Shown here piece by piece: positions 2,072 to 63,861 of a stretch of DNA of 64,000 nt. Source of the DNA: Dehalococcoidia bacterium (lineage in GTDB: Bacteria > Chloroflexota > Dehalococcoidia > Lucifugimonadales > UBA3495). The stretch's first letter is position 1. The number at the start of each line of letters is the position of its first letter. The position numbers were made by a program, and so were the translations under genes. The stretch covers positions 458,526 through 522,525 of the forward strand of contig CBDBCU010000002.1 of assembly GCA_965203435.1 (NCBI GenBank), read 5' to 3'. Below the pieces are notes generated by a model that ran no database searches, was not told where the DNA came from, and was given only the letters and a program-made list of their open reading frames with translations.

Positions 2072-4438
2072 TTACCGCCCGGCCGACAAATTTACCGACC
2101 ACAATTCCCCTTGGCCGGGGATATACTGGCCGGTGCGGATGGTTTTGATGGGATAATCGGGCAGGGGGACGATTGCCACGCATTCCCCGCCGGGCCGGCC
2201 GCCGTAGGTATTCAGGGGAAAATCCCGGTTCTCAAAGTTGACGGATGGGGCGGCCGGCGGCAAATCCTCCGGCCGGGCCGGGTGGATATGCAGGAATACC
2301 GGGGTTTCGTATTCGTCTTGAGTGCAGGCGGCTTTGGCGTAAAGCAGGCGGTTACGGCCGGCCTCCCGGTCAAGGAAAACGGCGAAATCCTCCGACCCGG
2401 CCGGGGGTTGCCGTTGCCGCCGCCCCTGGGCAATCAGTTCCCGCAAGCCGGGTTGGGAAAGGCTGTGCAATTCCGCCCCTAGGGTTGTCCCGCCGGGTTC
2501 GTAATTGCCGCCGCTGCGCTGCATCAGGATCAGGTCGCCGTCCCCATCATCGGGCAGCTGAATGACCGCCAGGCAAAGGCCGTCCACCCTTACCCGCTGA
2601 TTGTGCCAGGGGGCATAAAAGCCGGGCTGCGGGAAATAGGGCGGCAAGGTTTCCGGCGTCGGCGGTAGCGGCTTAACCCCAAACCACACATCCGGCCCGT
2701 CCGCCGGGCAGTTTTCCTGAATAAAGGTCAGCCGCCGGCCGTCAATATAGACATCATAATCGGCGCGGATAATCGGCTCTCCGGCCGTGGTTTGGCGGTA
2801 TATTTCCCGGTAGGCGGCAATGGCGGCCGGCGTCATTCGGGCATCGTCCAACGGCCGCGCTACACTGAGGGTATTGTTATAAAGGCGGCGGCGGTAGCGG
2901 GAATTGAAAGCCAAATCCGGCTGATACGCCGCCGGCTGGCCGGCCAAAGTATAGTCGGCGCGGCGATGCACGGTGTCGGCGGTCAACTGCTGCCGGTCTG
3001 CCGCCGGCAGGATGTTTAGATGCCGCCGGCCGGTACGCACGGTCAGAGTTTCATTTGGATGGCTGTCCAACAGGTATTGCAATCCATCCCCCGCCGCCAG
3101 TTTCCAGTAATCCATCGCATACTGCGTCCGCAGCCGCTCCGGCGTCGTACGGTTCACCAGAAAGTTGAAATAGTCGGTCTGCAAGGGATGGATTTGCGCC
3201 ATTTGCAGCAGGGTCAACCCCAAGCCTACTCCGGCCAATCCATACAATCCGGCCGGCCCATAGCGCCGGCGGGATAAGGCGGTCAACAGCCAACCGCCGC
3301 CCAAGGCCGCCAGCAGGCAAAAGGGCGCATAGAGAAAATAAAGCTGCCGCCAGCCCTCATACTGATTGGATCCCAGCAGGGCGGCGGCCAGCGGCGGCAA
3401 TAGAAAGCAGGCCGCCAGCAGCACCAGGAAACGCCGCCGGGTGTTGCGGAAAACCGCTCCGGGCCGGCGCCAGGCCCTTACCGCTACCATTGCCAATCCG
3501 ACAAAGCCCAGCAGCAAAATCGGCGGCGGCGTGGTGATGGCAAACCAGACGGCGGCGTAATGCGGCGGCAATTCGTTGGACAATAGCAATTGTCCCTGAA
3601 ACAGCTGCGGCAAAACAACCGGATGATTTACCGTCAAACTCAGGCTGGTGATCAGGTAGTCAACGGGATTGGCCCAGGCGTAGGGGGTTACGGCATACAA
3701 AGTCAGTCCGGCGGTCAAGGCAAACACTCCGGCGGTTAGCAGGATGGGTTTCCGTTCCGGCCAACCGGCCGCCCCTAGCAAATCCAGTCCCCGCATTGCC
3801 AGGGCCGCCGCCAAAAGCCCTAGCCCCATAATCCGCAGGTTGGTCAATATCCCTACGGCTATTCCCAGCAGCACAAAAGCGCCGACGGTGTCTTTGCGGA
3901 AAGCCCGTTCCAGCAGATACAGGGCGATGATGAGCAGGGCGAGAAAGGGCAGGTCTTTGCTGTTGAGGTAGGAATGGGCGTAGAGGCGGGGGTGCAGCAG
4001 GAAAAGCAGCAGGGCCAGCAGGGCGATAAGCCGATGGTCGGTTAGCCGATAAGCCAGCCGCCAGCAAAAGAAAGCGCCAATGATAAAGAGCAGGTGGGTC
4101 AGGGTCAGCCGCAGGCGGTGGACATAGTAATAATCCTCCAAGCCCAGGATCCCCTCGGCCAGCAGCAGGGGCAGCTCAAAAACCACGCCATAAACCCGGT
4201 CGTGGTAAAGCTCGGTATCGATGCGGTCGGACTGCCCGAGGATGTAGTCCCGATTGGCTTGGGCAATCTGCCGCTGCGCCCGTTCATCGTAGTTAATGCC
4301 ATAATCCCCGGCCAGCACCAAGCCGGCCATTAGGAAAAGGGCGCAGATAATCAGGCCGCCGCGGTCCATAAGGAAGTTCCGCGCCGCCCGGCGGCCGCCG
4401 GAAACTTGCGGAACTATGCGGCGCAGCGGCGGGAACAT
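2072..4438 (-). CDS. GT-C fold (PMT_2/ArnT/GT39-like) polytopic membrane protein, paralog B, with two C-terminal two-Cys modules
   Basis: ORF track 2072..4555. Start moved to ATG 4438 (MFPPLRRIVPQ...) because all paralogs begin there right after a TGCTATAAT box. Many hydrophobic segments and a PMT_2-like pattern (YGVVFELPLLLAE...LAYRL...LHPRLYAHSYLNSKD). C-terminus ...CVAIVPLPDYPIKTIRTGQYIPGQGELW. Confidence 0.8.
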   Translation of the reverse strand: MFPPLRRIVPQVSGGRRAARNFLMDRGGLIICALFLMAGLVLAGDYGINYDERAQRQIAQANRDYILGQSDRIDTELYHDRVYGVVFELPLLLAEGILGLEDYYYVHRLRLTLTHLLFIIGAFFCWRLAYRLTDHRLIALLALLLFLLHPRLYAHSYLNSKDLPFLALLIIALYLLERAFRKDTVGAFVLLGIAVGILTNLRIMGLGLLAAALAMRGLDLLGAAGWPERKPILLTAGVFALTAGLTLYAVTPYAWANPVDYLITSLSLTVNHPVVLPQLFQGQLLLSNELPPHYAAVWFAITTPPPILLLGFVGLAMVAVRAWRRPGAVFRNTRRRFLVLLAACFLLPPLAAALLGSNQYEGWRQLYFLYAPFCLLAALGGGWLLTALSRRRYGPAGLYGLAGVGLGLTLLQMAQIHPLQTDYFNFLVNRTTPERLRTQYAMDYWKLAAGDGLQYLLDSHPNETLTVRTGRRHLNILPAADRQQLTADTVHRRADYTLAGQPAAYQPDLAFNSRYRRRLYNNTLSVARPLDDARMTPAAIAAYREIYRQTTAGEPIIRADYDVYIDGRRLTFIQENCPADGPDVWFGVKPLPPTPETLPPYFPQPGFYAPWHNQRVRVDGLCLAVIQLPDDGDGDLILMQRSGGNYEPGGTTLGAELHSLSQPGLRELIAQGRRQRQPPAGSEDFAVFLDREAGRNRLLYAKAACTQDEYETPVFLHIHPARPEDLPPAAPSVNFENRDFPLNTYGGRPGGECVAIVPLPDYPIKTIRTGQYIPGQGELWSVNLSAGR

Positions 4439-10508: not shown

Positions 10509-10584
10509 GGGGATATAGCTCAACTGGGAGAGCGCGGCGTTCGCAACGCCGAGGTTGGGGGTTCGAGCCCCCCTATCTCCACCA
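10509..10584 (+). tRNA. tRNA-Ala (anticodon CGC), CCA encoded
   Basis: Manual cloverleaf: acceptor GGGGATA/TATCTCC with G3:U70, D arm GCTC/GAGC, anticodon loop TTCGCAA, T arm GGGGG-TTCGAGC-CCCCC. Confidence 0.9.
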
Positions 10585-10589
10585 AACCA

Positions 10590-10666
10590 GCCCCTGTAGC
10601 TCAGGAGGACAGAGCGGCGGCGTCCTAAGTCGCGCGGCGGGGGTTCGAGTCCCTCCAGGGGTACCA
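10590..10666 (+). tRNA. tRNA-Arg (anticodon CCT), CCA encoded
   Basis: Acceptor GCCCCTG/CAGGGGT, anticodon stem GCGGC/GTCGC, loop GTCCTAA, T loop TTCGAGT. The first loop base G is unusual. Confidence 0.8.
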
Positions 10667-10715
10667 TAACCGGCAAGCCTTTCCCAAGCCGGCGGTCGCG
10701 CCGGCCGGATAATGC

Positions 10716-10793
10716 AGGAGCGTAGCTCAGTCTGGCCAGAGCGCTGGTCTCCAAAACCAGTGGTCGGGGGTTCGAATCCTCCCGCTCCTGCCA
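10716..10793 (+). tRNA. tRNA-Trp (anticodon CCA), CCA encoded
   Basis: Acceptor AGGAGCG/CGCTCCT, anticodon stem CTGGT/ACCAG with loop CTCCAAA, T arm GGGGG-TTCGAAT-CCTCC. Confidence 0.9.
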
Positions 10794-54441: not shown

Positions 54442-55722
54442 CTAAAAGAACCGCCCCCGAATCCGGCCCCGGCGGTAAGCAATGCGGAGGGCCAGGGCCG
54501 CGCCGCCGGCCAGAATCGCTATCCCGCTCAAAAGGCCCACTATCAGCCAGGGCTGCAAGGCAAAATCCGGATCCACATAGGACACCATAAGGCGGGAATC
54601 CGGTTGTTTGGGCCGCGGCGTATCCGCAGCGGATTGACTGCCGGGTTGATGGACGCCCTCCCGCAGTTCCTTGTGGCGTACCCGGCCCTGGTTTTCGACG
54701 AAAGCCGTGGCCGCGGCAAAATCGGCGGCATAAACCCGGAAAGTTACATTGGCCTGTTCCCCATCGGCATAGGTCAGCCAATACACCTCGTCCAATGCGC
54801 CCTCCCGCTGGGCCACATAATCCTTGAGCTGCGTCACCCGGTCGGCCACATTGGACACTTCCAGGGTAAAGCTGGCCCGGGGCGGATCGGACGGCCCCAA
54901 TCCCGGCGGCAGCAGGGTCAGCCGGATGGATGCCAATTCCACCCGCCGCTCCAGAAAGTTCCGCTGCCCCTGCCAGCGTTCCACCTCGGCCCGCACCCGG
55001 GCCAATTCCCGCTCCACCGCCAGAATTTCCGCTACGCTGCCGCTGCGTTCCAGCAGAGCCAGCAGGCTTTGCTCCTCCCGCATGGCGCTGTTCAGCCGGG
55101 CCGACAGGTCAATATGCTGCGCGGTAACATCCTCTTGCCCTAAAGTGCGGAACTGCACTTCGCCCAGGGATTCCAGGCGTTCCAGGGCCGGGAAAAACTG
55201 CGGCTGCGGCACGCGCAGGGTCAAATCGGCCCGAGGCGGTTCCGCCCCGCCGGCGCTGGACAGCTGCTCGACGAACCCGCCCAAATCCGCGGCAATGTTG
55301 CGGGCGCGGGTTACGGCCCGCTCCACAGAATCCGCCGCAATAGTCAATTCCGCGGTGGATATGATTTGGCGTACGGCAACTTGCCCGGTTTCCCGGCCGG
55401 CGGCATTGGCGGCGCGGTTCATCCCGGCCGCCGTGGCCGCCGGCATGGCCCGGGGGGCCGGGGTAGGGATGGCGGCCGCCGCATCCGATTTCGGAAAAGA
55501 CGCGACCGGGATTGCATTGCCGCTTTCCCCGTCGGCCCCATCCCTGGCTTGAATTGCGGCCGATTCCGTCCGGTCAAGACCCGATACTATCCCGGTCTGC
55601 GGCCAACCCGGAGCGGCCGGAGCGGCCGCCGTTGCCCCCTCGTCCGCGCCGGCGCAACCGATCAGCAGCATTAAAAGCGCCAGAGCCGTTGCCGCAAAAA
55701 CCCAAAGTTTCCCTGTTGCCAT
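54442..55722 (-). CDS. DUF4349-like lipoprotein with C-terminal TM anchor
   Basis: Lipobox LMLLIGC-AG. Coiled-coil-like ...DVTAQHIDLSARLNSAMREEQSLLALLE...ERELARVRAEVERWQGQRNFLERRVELASIRLTL. C-terminal helix WLIVGLLSGIAILAGGAALAL. Confidence 0.6.
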   Translation of the reverse strand: MATGKLWVFAATALALLMLLIGCAGADEGATAAAPAAPGWPQTGIVSGLDRTESAAIQARDGADGESGNAIPVASFPKSDAAAAIPTPAPRAMPAATAAGMNRAANAAGRETGQVAVRQIISTAELTIAADSVERAVTRARNIAADLGGFVEQLSSAGGAEPPRADLTLRVPQPQFFPALERLESLGEVQFRTLGQEDVTAQHIDLSARLNSAMREEQSLLALLERSGSVAEILAVERELARVRAEVERWQGQRNFLERRVELASIRLTLLPPGLGPSDPPRASFTLEVSNVADRVTQLKDYVAQREGALDEVYWLTYADGEQANVTFRVYAADFAAATAFVENQGRVRHKELREGVHQPGSQSAADTPRPKQPDSRLMVSYVDPDFALQPWLIVGLLSGIAILAGGAALALRIAYRRGRIRGRFF

Positions 55723-55867
55723 AGACTCCGCCCGCCTTGCCGGGAATAAGTTGAATGTGGCCCCAATTTTACTACAAAAAGGGATGGCGGCGGTATCCCG
55801 AAATTTCCCCGTCTTGATTCAGTTGCCTGGCAGGATGAACCCTTTGCCGTCATTCGCTATCCTCCCA

Positions 55868-55965
55868 CCGTCATTCCCGCGTAAGCGGGAATCCCGAACG
55901 GTACTGTCTTATGATGGTATTGTCGACAGGCAACCGTGGGATTCCCGCTTACGCGGGAATGACGG
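55868..55965. repeat. REP-1 composite element
   Basis: ccgtcattcccgcgtaagcgggaatcccgaacggtactgtcttatgatggtattgtcgacaggcaaccgtgggattcccgcttacgcgggaatgacgg. Confidence 0.85.
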
Positions 55966-56003
55966 TAGGGGGCCGTCAACCACCTTTCTATACAGACACC
56001 CAA

Positions 56004-56038
56004 AATCCTGTCTATCCTGTCTATCCATGTTTGAATCC
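56004..56038. repeat. MITE-3 solo terminal repeat
   Basis: aatcctgtctatcctgtctatccatgtttgaatcc. Same REP-1 + MITE-3-end arrangement as 7803..7969. Confidence 0.7.
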
Positions 56039-56207
56039 GTCTCCCTTTGGGCGGGCCGGGCGGTAAAGGGGCGGCGGAAATGGCGGTTTATACAGGCGAT
56101 TGCCCGGTGCCATTACGAATTACCCCTAGCCTTTTCGCAGATTTGGCGTTATTATGGGCATATATCAGGGCGCGACGGACCCAATCCTTAATGCGGAGGG
56201 GGAAATT

Positions 56208-57191
56208 ATGAACGACTACACCATCAGCATTGGTACTGTCGGCGGGGGCTTGTCGGTCAGCCCGGACGGGGGCGAAACCTGGAATCGCATCCGGGATCCC
56301 CTGCCCTCGGAAGGCAATGTGCGGGCCTTGACCGTCTATCCCGACGACCCGCAGCGCCTTATCGCCGGCACGGATGGCGGTATTTTCCGCAGCGACGACA
56401 ACGGCGTCTCCTGGCAGGAACTGGATTCCCCGATGGGCAGTATCCAAATCTGGTCGGTGGCCGTGGATCCGGAGGATGCGGACACCATTTTTGCCGGCAC
56501 CCGCCCGGACGCTTTCCGCTCCCGGGATGGCGGCAAAACCTGGGAACAGCTTTCCCTGGGCGTAACCCTGCCCTGTCCGGTGGGCATTCCCCGCACCACC
56601 AACATCATCGTCGACCCCCGGGATCATCGGACGGTGTGGGCCGGCATTGAGGTGGATGGCATTTACAAGAGTATGGACGGCGGCGACCGCTGGCTGCACC
56701 TGCCCGACCTGGGGCCGGATCCCTTTCACGGGGATATTCACGGGATGGCCCTGCGGCGGGCCGGCGGACGGACGGCCATTCACGCCACCACGCCCTTTGG
56801 CATTTCCACCAGCGTGGATGAGGGGGAAAGCTGGGATTTGCACGAGTTTCCCAAGTTTCACGCCGACGACCGCCGTTCCTACTGCCGGGGGATGGCGGTC
56901 AAACCGGACAATCCGCAGGTGATGTTCGTCGGCAACGGCGATTCCATTCCCGGCGTTACCGGAGCCATCCGGCGCACCACCGACGGCGGCCAGACCTGGC
57001 AGGCGGTCAATCTGCCGGTGCCGCCCAATTCGGTGGTTTATTGGTTCGGCGTCCACCCGGCACTGCCGGAGGTAGTCATCGCCGCCAGCCTGTACGGGTA
57101 TGTCTATCGCAGCGCGGATGGCGGCGACACCTGGGAAAAGCTGCCCAAAGAGTTCGGGGAAATCCGCGCCGTAGCCCTGACGCCTAATTAG
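56208..57191 (+). CDS. BNR/Asp-box repeat beta-propeller protein
   Basis: ATG 56208 after GGAGGGGG. Six S-x-D-x-G-x-(T/S/R)-W motifs: SPDGGETW, SDDNGVSW, SRDGGKTW, SMDGGDRW, TTDGGQTW, SADGGDTW. Confidence 0.8.
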   Translation: MNDYTISIGTVGGGLSVSPDGGETWNRIRDPLPSEGNVRALTVYPDDPQRLIAGTDGGIFRSDDNGVSWQELDSPMGSIQIWSVAVDPEDADTIFAGTRPDAFRSRDGGKTWEQLSLGVTLPCPVGIPRTTNIIVDPRDHRTVWAGIEVDGIYKSMDGGDRWLHLPDLGPDPFHGDIHGMALRRAGGRTAIHATTPFGISTSVDEGESWDLHEFPKFHADDRRSYCRGMAVKPDNPQVMFVGNGDSIPGVTGAIRRTTDGGQTWQAVNLPVPPNSVVYWFGVHPALPEVVIAASLYGYVYRSADGGDTWEKLPKEFGEIRAVALTPN

Positions 57192-57235
57192 GGGAGGGAT
57201 GCGGCCGGGCAATACCCGGATTAGTAGCCTGGTTT

Positions 57236-57267
57236 AAGGGGCGGGGATATTGCCAACCCCGCCCCTT
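57236..57267. terminator. GC-rich hairpin between convergent genes (possible bidirectional terminator; no clear U-tract)
   Basis: AAGGGGCGGGG-atattgccaa-CCCCGCCCCTT. Confidence 0.4.
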
Positions 57268-57296
57268 GGGTTAGCGATTTGCACGCTATCCCGGAT

Positions 57297-58400
57297 TTAT
57301 CCCCCCAGCATTTCGGCCAGATCCGGGGGCATTTGGATACCATGCCGCTGCTCAAAGGCGGCGACGGTTTCGTAGTCCTCTAGGAATGAACCCGCAATGT
57401 CCGCCCCTTTACTGAGTGCGACATTAAAATCTGCTCTGGCCCGCTCCCATTCGCCCAAATGCAACCAAGCCTCTCCGCGATAGTAGTAAGCCGCCGCATA
57501 ATCCGGGTCCAGGTTTATGGCGCTAGTAAGGTCTTGGATAGTGAGGTCCCACTCGCTTTTAAGCCGGTAAGTAAAGCCGCGATTGAAATAACCCACGGCG
57601 TAATCCGGATCCAGATCTACGGCTTGGTTAAAATCTGCAATAGCAAGGTCGATCTCCCCTATCGTCTGGTATGCCGCGCCGCGACCATTATAGGCTTCAA
57701 CCAGTTGGGGATTAAGAGCCAAGGCTTGGCTGAAACGTTCAATGGCCCCTGGATAATCCGCCCTGTCCAGATAAGACTGGCCGGCGCTGAAAGTGGCGGA
57801 GGCTTCCTGGTGGATGGCCGCGTACCGGATATAGCCGTGCAGGTCGTTATAGATAGTTTCAGCGGCAATGCCGTGACCCTGGCGCAGGTAGCGCAACAGC
57901 GGCGCTTTGCGCTGAGCCGGAATAACGACCACAATATCCGGCTCAATAAAGCCTTCCGGTGGGCGCACGAAAATGCTTTTCTGGGCGATGGCCCGGTTCA
58001 CCGGGCGGCTCGGCTCGTAGATGGAATCGGCAATCGCCGCTGACTTTTTCAGCAGAAGGACGCGGCCATCCTGGGAAGGGCTGCCATCGCAGGCAAAGAA
58101 CAGGGCAATGAGATAGTCGGCGGTAAAGTCAATCAGGTTGGTCTTGCCGCCGTAATGCTGGAGTTCGGTCAGAATTTCAAACGCATCCTTCTCGGTAGTG
58201 AACCGCTGCGCTTCCAACAAGCGTATTTCTTGCACGGCTTCGACTTGACCGCGCAAGTGGCCCGGTAGCTCGCGGTAGAGGCCGGAGGATACCTCGGGAT
58301 AGCACTGGGGTTCGCCCCGGAAAATGTAATCCCCGGCGGCGGCTTCCCGCGCCAAATTGGTAATTACTTCCAGGACTTCTCCCAAGGCATCGCTAGGCAT
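57297..58400 (-). CDS. FRG-domain protein fused to C-terminal TPR repeats
   Basis: ORF 57297..58577 trimmed to ATG 58400. DYIFRGEPQCY...LTELQHYGGKTNLIDFTADYLIALFFAC (FRG pattern), then ~4 TPR units (AIERFSQALALNPQLVEAYNGRGAAY...). Confidence 0.8.
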   Translation of the reverse strand: MPSDALGEVLEVITNLAREAAAGDYIFRGEPQCYPEVSSGLYRELPGHLRGQVEAVQEIRLLEAQRFTTEKDAFEILTELQHYGGKTNLIDFTADYLIALFFACDGSPSQDGRVLLLKKSAAIADSIYEPSRPVNRAIAQKSIFVRPPEGFIEPDIVVVIPAQRKAPLLRYLRQGHGIAAETIYNDLHGYIRYAAIHQEASATFSAGQSYLDRADYPGAIERFSQALALNPQLVEAYNGRGAAYQTIGEIDLAIADFNQAVDLDPDYAVGYFNRGFTYRLKSEWDLTIQDLTSAINLDPDYAAAYYYRGEAWLHLGEWERARADFNVALSKGADIAGSFLEDYETVAAFEQRHGIQMPPDLAEMLGG

Positions 58401-58569
58401 ACCGACTTTCGTCCTTACCCGGTTGCTGGCGCAGGGGCAACCGAGCGCCGCCGCGCTGCGGCAACCGCCGCCGCCGCACCGGTTGTTGGCCCGTCTTGCC
58501 GGACTTGCCGGAAGGCCCGGTTTTCGCCCCCGACGAAGGGCTGTAGTTGGTCGCGCTAATGGGCTGCAT
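58393..58569 (-). CDS. small basic ORF (58 aa), translationally coupled to the FRG-TPR gene
   Basis: GGAGGTGA SD 5 nt upstream of ATG 58569. MQPISATNYSPSSGAKTGPSGKSGKTGQQPVRRRRLPQRGGARLPLRQQPGKDESRYA. Its TAG overlaps the FRG ATG (tATGCCTAG). A paralog lies at 58753..58932. Confidence 0.5.
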   Translation of the reverse strand: MQPISATNYSPSSGAKTGPSGKSGKTGQQPVRRRRLPQRGGARLPLRQQPGKDESRYA

Positions 58570-58597
58570 TGTGTCACCTCCTGCCCAAGATACCCGG

Positions 58598-58626
58598 ATT
58601 GTCCCCCATTCCACTGCCTTTGTCAA
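58598..58626 (-). promoter_or_regulatory. promoter for small ORF 1 / FRG-TPR (TTGACA-N17-GACAAT)
   Basis: tgtcaa 58621..58626 and attgtc 58598..58603 on the + strand. Confidence 0.5.
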
Positions 58627-58646
58627 GGGCAAAACCGGCAATTCAA

Positions 58647-58766
58647 TCAGCCTTTACCCGGCCGCCCCACCCTTGCGGGAATAGCACCGGTTCCATCCCC
58701 GGCGGCGGCTTTCCGCGCCAGATTGGTGATTACTTCCAGGACTTCGCCCAGTTCATCGCTGGACAT
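58647..58766 (-). pseudogene. duplicated 5' fragment of the FRG gene (first ~25 codons, then divergence and a stop)
   Basis: MSSDELGEVLEVITNLARKAAAGD... versus MPSDALGEVLEVITNLAREAAAGD... of 58400. Ends ...GRPGKG-TGA at 58647. Confidence 0.65.
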
Positions 58767-58932
58767 ACCGAATTTCGACCTTGCCCGTCTGCGGGTTCAG
58801 AGTAAACTGAGCGCCGCCGCGCTGTTGCCGCCGCCTCCGCACCGGTTGCCGGCCCGTCTTGCCACAAGTCCGGCAGGGCGCAGTTTTCGTCCCTGCCCGA
58901 GGGCTGTAGCTGGTCGCGCTAATGGGCTGCAT
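58753..58932 (-). CDS. small basic ORF (59 aa), paralog of 58393..58569
   Basis: GGGAGGTGA SD. MQPISATSYSPRAGTKTAPCRTCGKTGRQPVRRRRQQRGGAQFTLNPQTGKVEIRYVQR. Its stop overlaps the ATG of the FRG fragment. Confidence 0.45.
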   Translation of the reverse strand: MQPISATSYSPRAGTKTAPCRTCGKTGRQPVRRRRQQRGGAQFTLNPQTGKVEIRYVQR

Positions 58933-58961
58933 TGATGTCACCTCCCGCCCTTGATAAGTTG

Positions 58962-58990
58962 ATTATCCCCCATTTCCCCGCCTTGGTCAA
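58962..58990 (-). promoter_or_regulatory. promoter for small ORF 2 (TTGACC-N17-GATAAT)
   Basis: ggtcaa 58985..58990 and attatc 58962..58967 on the + strand. Confidence 0.5.
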
Positions 58991-59037
58991 GGGTAAAACC
59001 GGCAATGCAATCGGCCTTTCCCCGGCCGCCCACCTGC

Positions 59038-59997
59038 CTACGGGTTAAGTTTAAGCCACACCGCGCCGGCATCCACGCCAAATCGCCGTAGCAGAGCCTT
59101 GGTACTCTCGGATACTTCGACGTTGCCGCGCCTTTGATTCAGATGAAGGCCGTTAGACAACCGACTCGGATTCCTAAAATCCGTGCCGTTGGTGTGCTGG
59201 CTGGTGGTGTTGACCACGCAAGTCGTTATCCCCCGCAGGACCGGACACTTATCGGCGGTCAACTGATTGGTTCGGATTAACCACTCAGCAGTCTCCCGCA
59301 GGGCCTGCCGCCAGCTTTGAATCGGCTTTTCCCTTTCCCCGGGAAAGAGAATCGCCATCGGTTTCGGACTGTTAAGCCTTTCCGGCGTGTAGAGGGATAC
59401 ATCTACCCAATCATCACCAGCGGGGACAGACGGTTGCGGGTTAACAACCGTTGCCGCCGGCGTCGGAGCAACCGCCACCACCGGCGGAGAAATAATCGGT
59501 TCCACTGCCGCCACTGGCTCTCCCGTTGCCAGGTTAGGCCGCCACAGCAGCAGCAGTTTCAGGGCAAGCTGGTGCGCGGGTTCGCCGGAAAGGGATACGC
59601 TCAACTTCCGGCGTTCACTGCCGGAAAAGTCGGAAACATCGTCAAGAACCCACCGATTGCCATCGGTCAGGCCGGCGTATTTCACCCGCTGCGTCAAAGC
59701 GTAGGTGAAAATCTGTTCCACGTTGCGCGGGGATTCCAGAGTTTCATCCAACCTCTTGGCTTCGATGAAAGCCTGCGGCTTGTCGCCGCCGCCCAGCAAA
59801 GCGTAGTCGGCCCGGCCGTTGCCGACGGTATACTCCGGCGTAACCAAGGCCGGATCGGCCGTGTCCCAGCCCAGGGCCCGCAGCAGCGGGTCAATCAGGG
59901 CGTAGCGGGTCAACGCTTCGCTTTGACTCAAAGCCGGGCGGTGCTGCTCGATCCGCCCTTGCAGCGTCGCAATCACCCCCACCAAATCGTCCAGCAT
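59038..59997 (-). CDS. HsdR_N-like (type I restriction enzyme R N-terminal, PD-(D/E)xK fold) domain protein with an unknown C-terminal domain
   Basis: GGAGG SD. SEALTRYALIDPLLRALGWD...GRADYALLGGGDKPQAFIEAKRL (D...ExK), Pro/Val linker, then an unassigned ~130-aa C-terminal domain. Confidence 0.65.
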   Translation of the reverse strand: MLDDLVGVIATLQGRIEQHRPALSQSEALTRYALIDPLLRALGWDTADPALVTPEYTVGNGRADYALLGGGDKPQAFIEAKRLDETLESPRNVEQIFTYALTQRVKYAGLTDGNRWVLDDVSDFSGSERRKLSVSLSGEPAHQLALKLLLLWRPNLATGEPVAAVEPIISPPVVAVAPTPAATVVNPQPSVPAGDDWVDVSLYTPERLNSPKPMAILFPGEREKPIQSWRQALRETAEWLIRTNQLTADKCPVLRGITTCVVNTTSQHTNGTDFRNPSRLSNGLHLNQRRGNVEVSESTKALLRRFGVDAGAVWLKLNP

Positions 59998-60081
59998 AAT
60001 GCCTCCGTTCCGCCGGTTCGAGCCCGGTTGCGGGCATTGTAGCCGGTAGGATATGATTGGTCAAATCCCGGCCCAACCCGG

Positions 60082-60516
60082 TCAGGCCGCCCGTTCCGCC
60101 GCCGGTTGAGCGCCCACCGCCGCCAGCGCCGCCATTACCCGGTCGATGGGGATGCTGTAGTTCAGGATTAGCAGTTGGCCGGCTTCCTTTTCGCTGACCC
60201 CCAAGCGCCGGGCCAAATCCGCCGTTCCCATACCCTGGGCCCGCAGGGCCGTATAGAGATCCAGCTGGGCGGCAATCAGCGGCTGCACGCCAACCAATTC
60301 CTGCCCCGCCGCCCGGGGGCTGGGCGTGGGCAGTTCCTCCTGACAGTCGATATAGGCGGCCAAGGCAACGACCAAGGCATCCTCGGCCAGGATGATGGCC
60401 TCCTTGAAAGTGTCGCCGCCGGTATGACAGCCGATTACATCGGGAAAGGAAACGATATAGCTCCGCTCGCCCTCGGTTTCATCGAGGACGATGCTGCACG
60501 GAAAGGTGTATTGCAC
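60082..60516 (-). CDS. hicB: HicB-family antitoxin with C-terminal HTH
   Basis: MQYTFPCSIVLDETEGERSYIVSFPDVIGCHTGGDTFKEA...; paralog of 39755..40186. Confidence 0.85.
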   Translation of the reverse strand: MQYTFPCSIVLDETEGERSYIVSFPDVIGCHTGGDTFKEAIILAEDALVVALAAYIDCQEELPTPSPRAAGQELVGVQPLIAAQLDLYTALRAQGMGTADLARRLGVSEKEAGQLLILNYSIPIDRVMAALAAVGAQPAAERAA

Positions 60517-60518
60517 TT

Positions 60519-60725
60519 TCAGAACCTCCTGCGGTCGATGCCCAATTGCCTGAGCATACTCAAAAGCAGCCCCGGCTTAATCTCCCCGTGTTTTACCTGG
60601 GTGCGCCGGCGGCCTAGGAAAAAGGTTCCGTGGCTGCCTTTGCCCCGCTCCGGGGCAAAGGAGCACTCCAACCCGTTGTTCCGGGCGTAGCGGCGGGCCC
60701 GCCGGACAAATTGTTGACCGTTCAT
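60519..60725 (-). CDS. hicA: HicA-family toxin
   Basis: MNGQQFVRRARRYARNNGLECSFAPERGKGSHGTFFLGRRRTQVKHGEIKPGLLLSMLRQLGIDRRRF. Confidence 0.85.
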   Translation of the reverse strand: MNGQQFVRRARRYARNNGLECSFAPERGKGSHGTFFLGRRRTQVKHGEIKPGLLLSMLRQLGIDRRRF

Positions 60726-60776
60726 AGGGCTATTGTAACCTTACCGGATACCGCCGTCAAAGCAACCCGGGCTGTG

Positions 60777-60903
60777 GATTCAAACATGGATTAACAGGAT
60801 AGACAGGATTCTTTTTATCGGCCCAGAGCGGTTATTGACGGTCAGTACCGTTCTATACCGACCAACAAAATCCTGTCTATCCTGCCCATCCATGTTTGAA
60901 TCC
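60777..60903. mobile_element. MITE-3 full copy
   Basis: gattcaaacatggattaacaggatagacaggatt...aatcctgtctatcctgcccatccatgtttgaatcc. The interior contains cagtaccgttc (= GAACGGTACTG, also in REP-1 cores). Confidence 0.85.
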
Positions 60904-60910
60904 GCCCCGG

Positions 60911-62815
60911 CTATTCCTCCAGGGTGGTGATGTCCCCCGGATCCAGTCCCAGCTCCCGGGCTTTCAGCAGGCGGCGCATTATCTTGCCGGAGCGGGTCTT
61001 GGGCAGTAGCGGCGTGAACTCAATTTCCGCCGGCACCGCTATCGGCCCCAAAGCGGTGCGAACCTGATTCCGCAGGGCGTCCACCATCACATCCGACGGA
61101 TCGTTGCCCACCCGCAGGGTTACGAAACCCTTGATGACTTCCCCCCGCAGTTGATCCGGCTTGCCGATAACCGCCGCCTCGGCCACCGCCGGATGGGACA
61201 CCAGGGCGCTCTCCACTTCCGCCGACCCGATGCGGTGGCCGGCCACATTCAGCACATCGTCGGCCCGCCCCACCACCATATAGTAGCCATCGGCATCGCG
61301 CAGGGCCACATCCCCGGAGGAATAGACCCCCGGGATCTGCTGCCAAGTGGCGGCGTAGCGTTCCGGGTCGCCCCAAACGGTGCGGGAAAAGTGGGGAAAG
61401 GGCCGGCGGATGACCAGAAACCCGCCCTTGTCCGGCTCCTCGATCGGCTGTCCCTCCCGGTCGACCACATCCAGCAAGGCCCCGGGCAGCGGCTTGCCGA
61501 CCCGGCCGGGCCGGGAGGCCATCGTAGCCAGCGTCCCCAGGCAAGGGCCGCCGGTTTCCGTCTGCCACCAGTTATCCACAATGTGCGCCCACTCGCCGCT
61601 ACCGCAGATATGTTCGTAAGCCCAGCGCAAAGCCTCCGGATTCAGCGGCTCCCCGGCGCAGGTCAAAAAGCGCAGCGAGCGCAGATTGTAGCCCTGAGCC
61701 GGCTCCGCCCCGTAGCGCATCAGCATCCGCACCGCCGTGGGGGCCGTGAAAATCACATTGACCCCATACTTCTCGATGATTTCGTAAAAGACGGCGCTGT
61801 GGGGATAGTCCGGGGCCCCTTCCCGAAAAATAGTAGTAGCCCCGGCCACCAGCGGCGCATAGACGATATAGCTGTGGCCGACCACCCAGCCAATGTCCGA
61901 CATACACCAGAAAACATCGGCGTCTTTCACATCCCAAAAGGTCTTGAAATGGTAATGAGTGCCGACCATATAGCCGCCGTGGACATGGACAACCCCTTTG
62001 GGCTTGCCGGTAGTGCCGCTGGTGTAGAGGATATAGAGGGGATCCTCCGCGTCCATCACTTCCGCCGGGCATTCGATGGCACTGGCCGCCAGCAGTTGGT
62101 CAAAATCGGTCTGGCCGGGGGACAATTCGGTTTGCTCCGGTTCCCGCCGCCAGAGGATAACGGCGGTCAACGAATCGCAGCCGATAACGGCCTCATCCGC
62201 GATGGATTTCAAGTCCACCCGGCTGCCGCGCCGGTAGCCCACATCCCCGGCAATCAGAACCTTGGCGGCGGCGTCCTGAATGCGATCCCGCAAAGAGCCG
62301 ACGCTGAACCCGGCATAGACCACGCTGTGGATGGCTCCAATCCGGGCGCAGGCCAGCATGGCGATAGCCCCCTCCGGAGTCAACGGCATATAGATGACCA
62401 CCCGGTCGCCTTTGCCCACGCCCAGGGATTTCAGCCCGTTGGCGCAGCGATTGACCTGCTGGGCCAAGCGGCCGTAGGTATAAACCTGTTCCGCGCCATC
62501 CTCGCCCAGCCAGATGAGAGCCGCCTTGTTCCGCCGCTCGGTCGTCAAATGCCGATCCAGGGCGTTGTAGCAGATGTTGGTCTGCCCGCCGAGGAACCAC
62601 CGAAAGTTGGGATAATCCCACTGAAAGACGGCATCCCAGGGGCGGAACCAGTGCAGCCCGGCGGCGGCCTCGGCCCAGAACCCTTCCGGGTCGGCCAGGG
62701 AACGGGCATAAACGGCGTCATAATCTTGCAGGGCGGCCTGCCCGGATACATGGGGCGGCGGCGGAATCTCCCCGGATTCCCGCAGCAGGTTGTCAATCTG
62801 TCCTTGCTGAACCAT
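60911..62815 (-). CDS. acs: acetyl-CoA synthetase (AMP-forming)
   Basis: ORF 60911..63031 trimmed to ATG 62815 (AAAGGAG SD; the longer N-terminus runs through repeats). PEGFWAEAA..., YTSGTTGKPKG, WWQTETGG, LPKTRSGKIMRR. Confidence 0.93.
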   Translation of the reverse strand: MVQQGQIDNLLRESGEIPPPPHVSGQAALQDYDAVYARSLADPEGFWAEAAAGLHWFRPWDAVFQWDYPNFRWFLGGQTNICYNALDRHLTTERRNKAALIWLGEDGAEQVYTYGRLAQQVNRCANGLKSLGVGKGDRVVIYMPLTPEGAIAMLACARIGAIHSVVYAGFSVGSLRDRIQDAAAKVLIAGDVGYRRGSRVDLKSIADEAVIGCDSLTAVILWRREPEQTELSPGQTDFDQLLAASAIECPAEVMDAEDPLYILYTSGTTGKPKGVVHVHGGYMVGTHYHFKTFWDVKDADVFWCMSDIGWVVGHSYIVYAPLVAGATTIFREGAPDYPHSAVFYEIIEKYGVNVIFTAPTAVRMLMRYGAEPAQGYNLRSLRFLTCAGEPLNPEALRWAYEHICGSGEWAHIVDNWWQTETGGPCLGTLATMASRPGRVGKPLPGALLDVVDREGQPIEEPDKGGFLVIRRPFPHFSRTVWGDPERYAATWQQIPGVYSSGDVALRDADGYYMVVGRADDVLNVAGHRIGSAEVESALVSHPAVAEAAVIGKPDQLRGEVIKGFVTLRVGNDPSDVMVDALRNQVRTALGPIAVPAEIEFTPLLPKTRSGKIMRRLLKARELGLDPGDITTLEE

Positions 62816-62918
62816 AGCAGCGCTCCTTTGTAGTTGATTGGCGGATTTGCGGCCGGCGGCTAATCCGCCGGCAATCGGCTGCCGGGAAGTATGTTGGCAA
62901 GCCGCAGCCAATTCCTTT

Positions 62919-62946
62919 CCGCTCATCCTGAACTTGTTGAAGGATG
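62919..62946. repeat. PAL-4 repeat, followed by a MITE-2 fragment (62950..62975)
   Basis: ccgctcatcctgaacttgttgaaggatg, then ccaagcgtagccgagggatctgaaatgcc. Confidence 0.75.
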
Positions 62947-62991
62947 CCCTTCCAAGCGTAGCCGAGGGATCTGAAATGCCGGCCCTAGCTA

Positions 62992-63252
62992 CCGTCCTTC
63001 CCCCCTTACTACCGTCCTTCCCGCCCTCCACCGCAATTCCCGCCCTAGCTACCGTCCTTCCCGCCTCCCACCGTCATGCCGGCTGTCCCTACCGTCATTC
63101 CCGCGTAAGCGGGAATCCGGCGGCGGTTGGACGGCAAAGGGCTGGTCTTTTCAGCACCGTCGGGATTCCCGCTTACGCGGGAATGACGGTGGGGGCCGCC
63201 GGTATTACGGTAGGGGGTGGCCGGTATGACGGTGGGGCAGCCGGTACGACGG
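62992..63252. repeat. REP-1 cluster with one composite element and many degenerate half copies
   Basis: ccgtccttcc x3, ccgtcattcccgcgtaagcgggaatccggcggcggttggacggcaaagggctggtcttttcagcaccgtcgggattcccgcttacgcgggaatgacgg, then ggtattacgg/ggtatgacgg/ggtacgacgg. Confidence 0.85.
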
Positions 63253-63303
63253 TAGGGGTCGCCGTCAATCTACGGCTACCCTCGGAATTACCGGGCCGGT
63301 TGC

Positions 63304-63600
63304 CTAAAGCCTTCCGCCGCCGGCGACCGCAATGACTTCCTGCGCCGCTTCCGGATCCAGCTTAATCCGCCCCTTTTCCGGCGGATACTCGATGACCAGC
63401 ACTTCCTCGACCGCCTCCGGCGGCAAGCCCCGGCGACCATTTTCCCGCGAAAAATCCAGCATCAGGGCAATGGCCTGCGCCAGGTTTTCCCGGGCCGCCG
63501 CTTTAGTCTTGCCCTGCCCGTTGGCCTCGGGAACCTCCAGGCAATAGGCAACATACCAATCCTCGTCCTGTTCCAAAACCACCGTGAACTCGTTGATCAT
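63304..63600 (-). CDS. hicB: HicB-like antitoxin (UPF0150 family) with EYPPEKGRIKL C-terminal extension
   Basis: MINEFTVVLEQDEDWYVAYCLEVPEANGQGKTKAAARENLAQAI... Confidence 0.75.
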   Translation of the reverse strand: MINEFTVVLEQDEDWYVAYCLEVPEANGQGKTKAAARENLAQAIALMLDFSRENGRRGLPPEAVEEVLVIEYPPEKGRIKLDPEAAQEVIAVAGGGRL

Positions 63601-63669
63601 CCGACCAGACCTCCTTGATGGCTATGCGCCTTTCTAACCCGGCCAGCAAAGACCGCCGGCCGCCGGGAA

Positions 63670-63861
63670 TCAGCGGCCAATCTCCGGCACGGAAAGGGTG
63701 CGGCAGATTTTGCGCGCAATCCCTTCCTTAATTTCCGAATGGCGCGGCACGCCGTCTTTGTCGCCCGTTTCCGGGTTAATCCCGAGGGAATGGTTGCCGC
63801 CCTCCCGCAGCCGGTAGCAGCCATGCCGCCGCAAGTGGCGCACCAGCGTGTTCAGATGCAT
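63670..63861 (-). CDS. hicA: HicA-family toxin (YcfA-like)
   Basis: MHLNTLVRHLRRHGCYRLREGGNHSLGINPETGDKDGVPRHSEIKEGIARKICRTLSV. Confidence 0.8.
   Translation of the reverse strand: MHLNTLVRHLRRHGCYRLREGGNHSLGINPETGDKDGVPRHSEIKEGIARKICRTLSVPEIGR

Follow-up and report, generated by a model that had tools for sequence, protein, structure and literature searches.

A small basic gene overlapping an FRG-TPR gene in a plausible conflict cassette of a Dehalococcoidia bacterium

Several described systems come close to the locus reported in this study. The assignment of FRG to the ADP-ribosyltransferase (ART) superfamily comes from the literature, which treats it as a clade of that superfamily and predicts an NADase-type or ADP-ribose-generating antiviral effector of prokaryotic immunity (PMC9503650, PMC12522546), and the PADLOC entry PDC-S15 is a single-gene candidate of this kind. 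ART-type toxin-antitoxin (TA) pairs, such as DarT-DarG, RES-Xre and ParT-ParS, have a small upstream gene overlapping a larger gene for an ART-like enzyme behind one promoter; effector-TPR proteins carry exchangeable heads, with TIR established among them as an NADase; the Ssn family (cd10448) comprises single-stranded DNA nucleases of under 150 amino acids with one GIY-YIG domain and with genes flanked by repeated hairpins, which modulate the integration of incoming DNA (PMC11893778); and in the orphan modules of Rhs and contact-dependent inhibition (CDI) systems, allele replacement leaves a truncated remnant and an intact small partner gene beside the live copy. Here we analysed a stretch of 64,000 nucleotides (nt) from a Dehalococcoidia bacterium (contig CBDBCU010000002.1, positions 458,526 to 522,525), called the window below, and describe in it a locus where a small basic gene overlaps the gene of an FRG-TPR protein. 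The locus had been proposed from the letters of the same DNA (the original prediction) as a three-gene conflict module with a duplicated cassette, and flanking genes were scanned from 54442 to 63861.

The locus resembles each of these systems in part. The N-terminal domain of the larger protein passes Pfam FRG and matches 13 PDC-S15 models, but the window gene differs in its overlapping small basic partner, in the TPR repeats and conserved C-terminal module that follow the domain, in the alternative cassettes found at its slot and in a companion HsdR_N-like gene that is optional. As in the ART-type TA pairs, the small upstream gene overlaps the larger one and shares a single promoter with it, the small gene survives in orphan copies, and the top viral fold match is DarT; the small protein is, however, extremely basic, lacks a helix-turn-helix (HTH) or macro domain and is weakly constrained, and most FRG-TPR genes have no partner. 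The same TPR array and C-terminal motif bear FRG, TIR_2 or Trypsin_2 heads in neighbouring genes, in the manner of effector-TPR proteins, although those scaffolds are without a known ligand and no STAND NTPase module is present here. Relatives carry an alternative small gene, called variant B to distinguish it from variant A of the window, whose product is a single-domain GIY-YIG-superfamily protein of 68-69 amino acids (aa) at a site of DNA exchange like Ssn, whereas the hairpins flanking it are inconsistent and variant A lacks the catalytic pattern. The remnant with an intact small gene beside the live copy recalls Rhs/CDI modules, except that the window remnant is a 5' stub lying upstream and not a 3' toxin tip lying downstream, and that the window has no secretion apparatus or Rhs/CdiA core. 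We believe the partner gene for a small basic protein, the GIY-YIG-like gene that can stand in its place and the turnover of cassettes and stubs to be undescribed, the FRG/PDC-S15 kind being already known.

We propose, as about an even call, that the live unit of this locus is a promoter-bearing two-gene cassette encoding a basic small partner and an acidic FRG-TPR sensor/effector, and that it behaves as an exchangeable allele. The locus lies entirely on the minus strand in the gene order hicA, hicB, HsdR_N-like gene, two units of about 340 nt and the FRG+TPR gene. Each unit contains a promoter, the Shine-Dalgarno (SD) sequence GGAGGTGA, an ATG open reading frame (ORF) of 58-59 codons and the first 24 FRG codons, and both promoters fit TTGAC(C/A)-17 nt-GA(T/C)AAT (58990-58962 and 58626-58598), so that the promoter elements with 17-nt spacer, the SD sequence and the basic ORF foreseen for each copy are all in place. 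The parts on which the argument depends are as follows.

59038-59997, minus strand: HsdR_N-like PD-(D/E)xK protein of 319 aa, core at about aa 9-120
58695-59031, minus strand: repeat unit 1, the putative older remnant cassette (promoter, SD, small ORF, FRG stub)
58962-58990, minus strand: promoter-like site of unit 1, TTGACC-17-GATAAT (promoter scan)
58753-58932, minus strand: small basic ORF variant A, orphan copy, 59 aa, with GGAGGTGA at 58945-58938
58647-58766, minus strand: FRG stub ORF of 39 codons, of which codons 1-24 (58766-58695) are FRG-homologous
58329-58667, minus strand: repeat unit 2, the 5' part of the putative live cassette
58598-58626, minus strand: promoter-like site of unit 2, TTGACA-17-GACAAT (promoter scan)
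58393-58569, minus strand: small basic ORF variant A, operonic copy, 58 aa, with GGAGGTGA at 58581-58574
57816-58400, minus strand: FRG domain, aa 1-195 of a 367-aa protein (Pfam FRG, PADLOC PDC-S15)
57297-57815, minus strand: four TPR repeats, a C-terminal helical module (...AAFEQRHGIQMPPDLAEMLGG) and the stop

The operonic small ORF terminates in ...TATGCCTAG over the FRG ATG at 58400, its TAG stop and that ATG giving the predicted overlap, which measures 8 nt. Its product carries a net charge of +9.5 and the subtype motif PSGKSG, while the orphan, stub-linked upstream copy, which is annotated as a gene in public assemblies, has a charge of +11.5 and the motif PCRTCG. All close syntenic FRG-TPR homologs (76-83% identity) are likewise overlapped over 8 nt by a called ORF, which has 55-59 codons, the syntenic relatives concerned being L001, L003, L005 and L007 (L numbers are our labels for the loci of relatives). 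Again, a Dehalococcoidia metagenome-assembled genome (MAG), L008, harbors the small ORF and a 64%-identical FRG-TPR gene with the same overlap, placed between purF and an enoyl-CoA hydratase gene, and a protein search added 19 further variant A protein clusters. The expected recurrence upstream of FRG genes thus holds for all close relatives and for L008, and fails for most FRG-TPR genes of other phyla, which are without the small ORF. In a codon alignment of 12 distinct DNA copies, all indels within the ORF are multiples of 3, whereas the 5' untranslated region has 1-nt indels. The ratio of nonsynonymous to synonymous substitution rates (dN/dS) comes to 0.59 for the annotated frame, compared with 0.98-1.13 for the other forward frames, with a bootstrap 95% confidence interval of 0.39-0.94 and 0.3% of replicates at or above 1 (P = 0.003), so the micro-ORF stands as predicted, conserved, overlapping the FRG-TPR gene and coding-constrained, and not with the neutral pattern named earlier as counter-evidence. 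Constraint is concentrated in the first 15 codons and in the RRRR-QQRGGARLT core (dN/dS about 0.4). As a group, the orphan copies show a dN/dS of 0.46 against about 0.7 for the operonic copies, and these orphan ORFs are not decaying.

The two subtype motifs (PCRTCG at 58858-58880, PSGKSG at 58492-58514) correspond to a CCGG-CAAGT-CCGG quasi-palindrome which by our own count matches at 14 of 16 positions when inverted and at 9 of 16 when compared directly, and the difference between them looks like an inversion of this element. Since both subtypes are present in many relatives, a single multi-base event would have made or removed the CxxC, which we take as one of two interchangeable subtypes and not as a conserved metal site. 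The CxxC had also been assigned to the other copy; it belongs to the upstream, stub-linked one.

Three other accounts of this 5' region bear on whether variant A is a gene. The FRG frame is open back to GTG 58577, from which a 426-aa FRG-TPR protein could begin and leave no small gene at all; that GTG nevertheless sits within the SD sequence, the frame of the extension is neutral (dN/dS 0.98-1.13), a 1-nt indel before the ATG shifts the GTG out of frame in copy 1, and the homologs in other phyla as well as all gene calls begin at the MPSD position. This long form, neutral in its extension and broken in copy 1, was rejected, and we give it practically no credence. A structured leader RNA or riboswitch, with the ORF incidental, could account for the blocks of nucleotide conservation, including synonymous sites near the start, and the GC-rich sequence can form stems. 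It is very improbable, considering that RNAalifold on 12 leaders returned a covariation term of +1.16 with compensatory change in only 3 of 49 pairs, that Rfam gave no leader match in the repeat region even at E <= 1 (the scan of the whole window yielding just three distant tRNAs), and that dN/dS is frame-specific and indels come in threes. The most serious of these accounts holds that the ORF is a mere leader feeding ribosomes to the FRG start by coupling, possibly sensing arginine or tRNA at RRRR, with a functionless peptide. The 8-nt overlap, the strong SD of the small ORF beside a poorly endowed FRG start (only AAGG, 13-14 nt before the ATG), the weak overall constraint and the interchange of two subtypes via a short inversion all speak for it; yet stub-linked orphans keep frame, SD and promoter in at least 5 lineages, the N-terminus and core are constrained as given above, and variant B is strongly conserved in the same position and, outside the syntenic lineage, lies without FRG overlap. 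We consider a pure leader unlikely, though not negligible. From the frame-specific dN/dS, the indels in multiples of three and the failing RNA and long-FRG accounts, we concluded that variant A is, on these substitution patterns, a real, translated, fast-evolving small protein gene under weak constraint.

The FRG+TPR gene (58400-57297) encodes 367 aa with Pfam matches to FRG (E = 5e-12) and TPR_11 (E = 1.4e-23), as the original prediction expected. The FRG match (PF08867) reaches 47 bits against a cut-off of 25 over aa 24-108, placing the protein in the family, and the F/Y-R-G-E motif is invariant in 118 homologs; the invariant residues comprise R28-G29-E30, S39, R43, H82, T87-N88-L89, D91 and Q140-K141. 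The best of the PDC-S15 models matches at 2.5e-20, which makes it a PDC-S15 candidate gene. With the superfamily assignment cited above, the description of FRG as uncharacterised is out of date. AlphaFold2 models reached a pLDDT of 92.9 for the full length and, because the full-length fold search was swamped by TPR structures, the FRG domain was re-predicted alone (93.3 for aa 1-195). ARTs made up 7 of the 10 top PDB matches of this domain, at TM-scores of 0.26-0.39, and included the Rhs TreTu toxin, rifampin ART, cholera toxin A, KptA/Tpt1, a guanine-specific ART, CARDS toxin and Scabin, while the viral library BFVD gave DarT as the top match, with PARP and ART-PolyVal. This ranking of modelled folds weakly agrees with the literature and is not proof. 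The protein carries a net charge of -22 (-16 in the TPR part) against +10 to +14 for variants A and B, and its GC content of 56% lies below the 62.5% of the window, which fits horizontal acquisition. The single promoter-like site and the 8-nt overlap, both conserved in relatives, are the gene arrangement of a type II TA pair.

The repeat itself is real: the copies at 59031-58695 and 58667-58329 are 82% identical over 340 nt (blastn E = 1.5e-92), with no third copy found by blastn within the window, so that the reported segment of about 330 bp stands while its loosely placed coordinates had to be corrected to these. The upstream small ORF overlaps the stub ORF 58766-58647, and by tblastn the first 24 stub codons are 87.5% identical to the FRG N-terminus, confirming the FRG relic; after them the stub ORF continues into the next unit. 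Stub and junction sequence of the window recur in L005 and, slightly altered, in L097-L099, which makes the duplication old and inherited, not recent. The upstream unit is accordingly better described as an apparent old remnant of cassette turnover than as a designed duplicated cassette. A microhomology model of the junction (GCCGGGGA) was set aside, as 27 extra junction bases are unexplained by it, and a repeat of the diversity-generating retroelement type was dropped, the repeat being 5'-terminal and no reverse transcriptase gene having been met near the locus (no dedicated test was made).

Comparison with relatives revealed that this slot holds different cassettes. In a relative of 4.4 Mb with the same gene order (acs, hicAB, HsdR_N-like gene, BNR), another pair stands behind the same promoter and SD, and in it the basic variant B of 68 aa overlaps a 338-aa FRG-TPR gene by 8 nt; that FRG-TPR protein is 51% identical to the one of the window, with a nearly identical C-terminus. 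L096-L101 hold the 68-aa variant B with a 338/339-aa FRG-TPR gene. The array of L097-L099 consists of variant A with a type-1 FRG stub followed by variant B with a full type-2 FRG gene, and in L001 an A stub is succeeded by a B stub and this by a live A cassette. The type of the small ORF goes with the type of the FRG gene in every case, stubs included. Variant B has a dN/dS of 0.13 with third positions varying in 64 of 68 codons, and by this pattern is clearly coding and under strong purifying selection.

A profile search with variant B through 1.84 billion representatives returned 344 relatives, mostly of 60-130 aa, of which 114 were scanned by Pfam: 21 match GIY-YIG (best 1e-6), others match MUG113 or T5orf172, and a few family members are fused to HTH domains. 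Two public sources name members of the family GIY-YIG nucleases, and it is via this wider family that variant B shows the superfamily feature, which variant A does not, its sequence lacking the Y..Y / RxxxH / E pattern. Searching the PDB by sequence with the profile of variant B gave chance matches only, and the two small ORFs of the window have no match in Pfam, NCBIfam, PHROGs or PADLOC. Against a narrow B profile, variant A gives a collinear hhalign match (P..RRRR..Q.RGGa.LT against P.RReREHq..RPGGkLT) that scores 18.1 against 9.8 +/- 2.1 for column shuffles, a value reached by 1 of 300, and against the broad GIY-YIG-like B profile it gives no hhalign signal. A descent of variant A from a B-like gene is suggested by the narrow match. 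Elsewhere, a 69-aa variant B (L088:3097-3306 and L090-L095:4001-4210) precedes genes for a 922-aa AAA_15/AAA_21 ATPase and a ThsB-type TIR protein in a gammaproteobacterial MAG, and stands alone amid several insertion sequence (IS) transposases in other contigs. Perfect hairpins follow the variant B gene in L010 (18 bp, directly after the stop, L010:3863-3905), L088 and L090 (14 bp, likewise directly after the stop, L090:4219-4250), and not in L026, L058 or L096; they could be terminators or Ssn-type target motifs.

The HsdR_N-like gene upstream of the units is a more loosely attached neighbour. The PD-(D/E)xK core seen by the original prediction was borne out, with GRADYAL...FIEAK readable in the 319-aa protein and the D...ExK motif accompanying a Pfam HSDR_N match of 29 bits against a cut-off of 25.1, restricted to aa 25-57; PHROG 4225 'endonuclease' matches at 1.9e-13 (aa 9-116) and PADLOC REase_I at 2e-4. 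A PDB sequence search with the protein gave chance matches only, and its C-terminal part of about 190 aa has no Pfam or PDB match. Since Pfam detects no helicase domain in it, the protein is taken as a stand-alone HsdR_N-like protein and not as HsdR; neither the SF2 motor of a type I HsdR nor hsdM/hsdS partners occur among the genes scanned. Its homologs in syntenic relatives diverge quickly (48-92% identity). In two Poribacteria (L021, L032) such homologs lie directly upstream of FRG-TPR, and in a Poribacteria MAG (L014:926-3223) a 765-aa fusion joins an HsdR_N-like domain, which aligns over 118 aa at 31% identity (E = 5e-12) and has V in place of the catalytic E, to FRG and about nine TPRs, 760 nt upstream of another FRG-TPR gene. 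This adjacency and the fusion argue for a functional link between the HsdR_N-like gene and FRG-TPR. The gene is absent from L001 and from the vicinity of the L008 pair and seems, from these neighbourhoods, a frequent but optional companion; the three-gene module therefore survives as an association seen in two Poribacteria and one fusion, and does not survive as an obligate unit.

With one genome taken per species, 352 relatives of FRG-TPR were confirmed, and almost all of the best 79 of these 352 come from MAGs of Poribacteria, Dehalococcoidia, Latescibacterota, Entotheonella, Caldilineaceae or Nitrospirales. These phyla are typical of marine-sponge microbiomes, where TPR proteins are enriched. 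Comparatively, a single relative was found among 2.9 million viral contigs (IMG/VR), which places FRG-TPR, on present counts, as cellular rather than viral; that sole member of the viral collection is L182 (IMGVR_UViG_2740892559_000001, match 3001-4353), with 39% identity. Eco57I-type restriction-modification (RM) enzymes and a second FRG-TPR gene in tandem are found as neighbours, BrnT toxins adjoin FRG-TPR in five Latescibacterota-type loci, and TIR_2-TPR and Trypsin_2-TPR proteins adjoin it elsewhere (L028:2005-3924, L046:5606-8584, L053:2114-3928). These, together with the PDC-S15 match, are surroundings of the conflict type that had been foreseen. By our own reading, the C-terminal motif of FRG-TPR also closes the TIR-TPR proteins and a number of other TPR neighbours; it is a motif which in L028 reads ...F.N.Y..V..FEQK.G..LP.D.A.ML and points to a family of head-swapped TPR proteins. 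An exchange of FRG for TIR on one scaffold would fit an NAD+-directed effector.

Two further explanations concern the role of the locus as a whole. One of them treats the small gene as a mobility layer, variant B being a minimal GIY-YIG nuclease of the Ssn kind that would nick DNA and so promote replacement of the cassette beside it, and variant A its degenerate descendant. The Pfam matches and names of the B family, the likeness of A and B beyond composition, the turnover with stubs in the slot, the occurrence of variant B alone among IS elements or before an ATPase and TIR pair, and the analogy with Ssn nucleases (PMC11893778) are in keeping with it; variant A, however, has neither the Tyr/His/Glu catalytic pattern nor a GIY-YIG match and no similarity to the broad B profile, the hairpins beside B genes are inconsistent, and 80 distant B relatives from metagenomes have diverse neighbours with none adjoining an FRG gene. 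We consider this quite unlikely. The other takes FRG-TPR as a symbiosis factor, a 'eukaryote-like' TPR protein acting on an animal host and not in anti-phage or intragenomic conflict, a view that the occurrence of nearly all 79 best loci in sponge-typical phyla would favour. The immediate neighbours are, on the other hand, RM enzymes, BrnT and HicAB toxins and TIR-TPR paralogs, PADLOC matches the protein as a candidate, immunity genes typically show tandem paralogs and a turnover of alleles, and no export signal is obvious in the N-terminal helix (no dedicated search was made), so that a symbiosis factor appears highly doubtful.

The two-gene cassette reading builds on what the sequences show of anatomy, conservation, coding constraint, cassette polymorphism, domains and neighbourhoods, and offers the following mechanism, in which the coupling, the attachment of the small protein to the TPR part, the NAD+ chemistry and a role in defence are what we infer. 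The small ORF with its strong SD would be translated first, and translation of FRG-TPR would depend on it. FRG-TPR would be a single-chain sensor/effector of the candidate anti-phage kind (PDC-S15): a signal or partner would be sensed through its TPR/C-terminal part, whereupon the FRG head, assigned to the ART superfamily and probably NAD+-consuming or ADP-ribosylating, would exhaust NAD+ or modify a target by ADP-ribosylation. The small basic protein would serve as the cognate partner, most likely binding the acidic TPR part and/or nucleic acid, and may set the threshold of the effector in an antitoxin- or bait-like manner; gene overlap, strict type pairing and orphan retention together suggest such a partner gating the FRG head. 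An earlier cassette would have left the promoter, the still-constrained orphan small gene and the 24-codon FRG stub upstream. A conflict or immunity cassette is plausible on these grounds, and the two genes themselves form a real and conserved pair within a variable islet of small size.

Several observations weigh against this proposal. Charge is the sole argument for binding between the small protein and the TPR part, and the pairing of small-ORF and FRG types could be mere linkage. About 70 of the 79 FRG-TPR loci, all in other genomes, are without the small ORF, which implies that the effector generally needs none. The constraint on variant A is weak, with middle and C-terminal parts near neutral (dN/dS 0.76-0.78), and the ART fold matches are not significant (best E = 0.088 in PDB and 0.012 in BFVD). 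In the literature searched we found no experimental test of any FRG protein and no validation of phage protection for PDC-S15, which is a candidate. The dominance of sponge-type phyla, moreover, leaves some room for a host-interaction role. A bolder version supposes that the small basic proteins, an arginine-rich 58-mer in the window and a minimal GIY-YIG protein in sister cassettes, are dedicated ligands of an acidic ART-TPR immune sensor and keep its NAD+-directed FRG head inactive as long as no invader has removed or modified them, that orphans give stand-alone immunity against incoming alleles, and that the mini GIY-YIG version drives allele replacement at this hotspot; within it, the ligand could for instance be an arginine-rich decoy for an R-S-type ART. 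This version is a fairly long shot and, if true, would add to ART-based immunity a new class that depends on a partner and has expanded in sponge-type symbionts.

The locus is bounded by acs (acetyl-CoA synthetase, 60911-63031) and by a convergent BNR/Sortilin-type gene (56154-57191), and the other genes met between 54442 and 63861 are, by Pfam, hicAB, acs, the BNR protein and DUF4349. Sigma-70-like sites with a 17-nt spacer and 10 of 12 matches stand 5' of hicA, of the HsdR_N-like gene and of each repeat unit (n = 4); in all, the region contains five promoter-like sites, where shuffled sequence would lead one to expect 1.4. The remaining features of the locus are these.

60519-60725, minus strand: hicA toxin gene (Pfam HicA_toxin 3.5e-7), with its own promoter-like site at 60760-60732
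60082-60516, minus strand: hicB antitoxin gene (Pfam HicB_lk_antitox 3.6e-10)
60036-60064, minus strand: promoter-like site 5' of the HsdR_N-like gene, TTGACC-17-TACAAT (promoter scan)
57236-57267, minus strand: perfect 11-bp GC-rich hairpin AAGGGGCGGGG...CCCCGCCCCTT, read from sequence, between the convergent FRG-TPR and BNR genes

The hairpin is likely the transcript end, left uncalled by the terminator scan because it has no T-run. A 128-bp palindrome resembling a miniature inverted-repeat transposable element (60776-60903, 57-nt arms that are 81% complementary) marks the left edge of this islet, in the interval from the hicA promoter to acs. Inverted repeats resembling repetitive extragenic palindromic (REP) elements, with the common core TCCCGCGTAAGCGGGA, occupy 55861-55972 (35-nt arms, 94% complementary) and 63061-63220 (58-nt arms, 86% complementary), and spurious ORFs of the 'IPAYAGMTVGG' type recur because of them. 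A second hicA (minus strand, 63861-63670, Pfam HicA_toxin 3e-7) is followed by a 98-aa ORF (within 63304-63861) that is HicB-like by eye and without a Pfam match; several hicAB pairs thus occur in the region, as they do in the loci of relatives. The sole Rfam matches in the window are a three-tRNA cluster on the plus strand (10509-10790).

FRG is an ART-like domain predicted to act in prokaryotic immunity, and the locus offers a compact, testable form of it with a 367-aa effector-sensor and a 58-aa partner, for which sister strains supply natural 'controls': their slot can hold another partner with another allele, and they also have stubs and partners left as orphans. Should the small ORF prove only a coupling leader, the locus would be an ordinary member of a candidate-defence family. 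If the small protein gates the enzyme, it would be a new kind of regulator for NAD+-based defence, and the persistence of tiny arginine-rich ORFs beside such genes would be explained. The cassette polymorphism documents the turnover of immune alleles in the genomes of uncultured symbionts.

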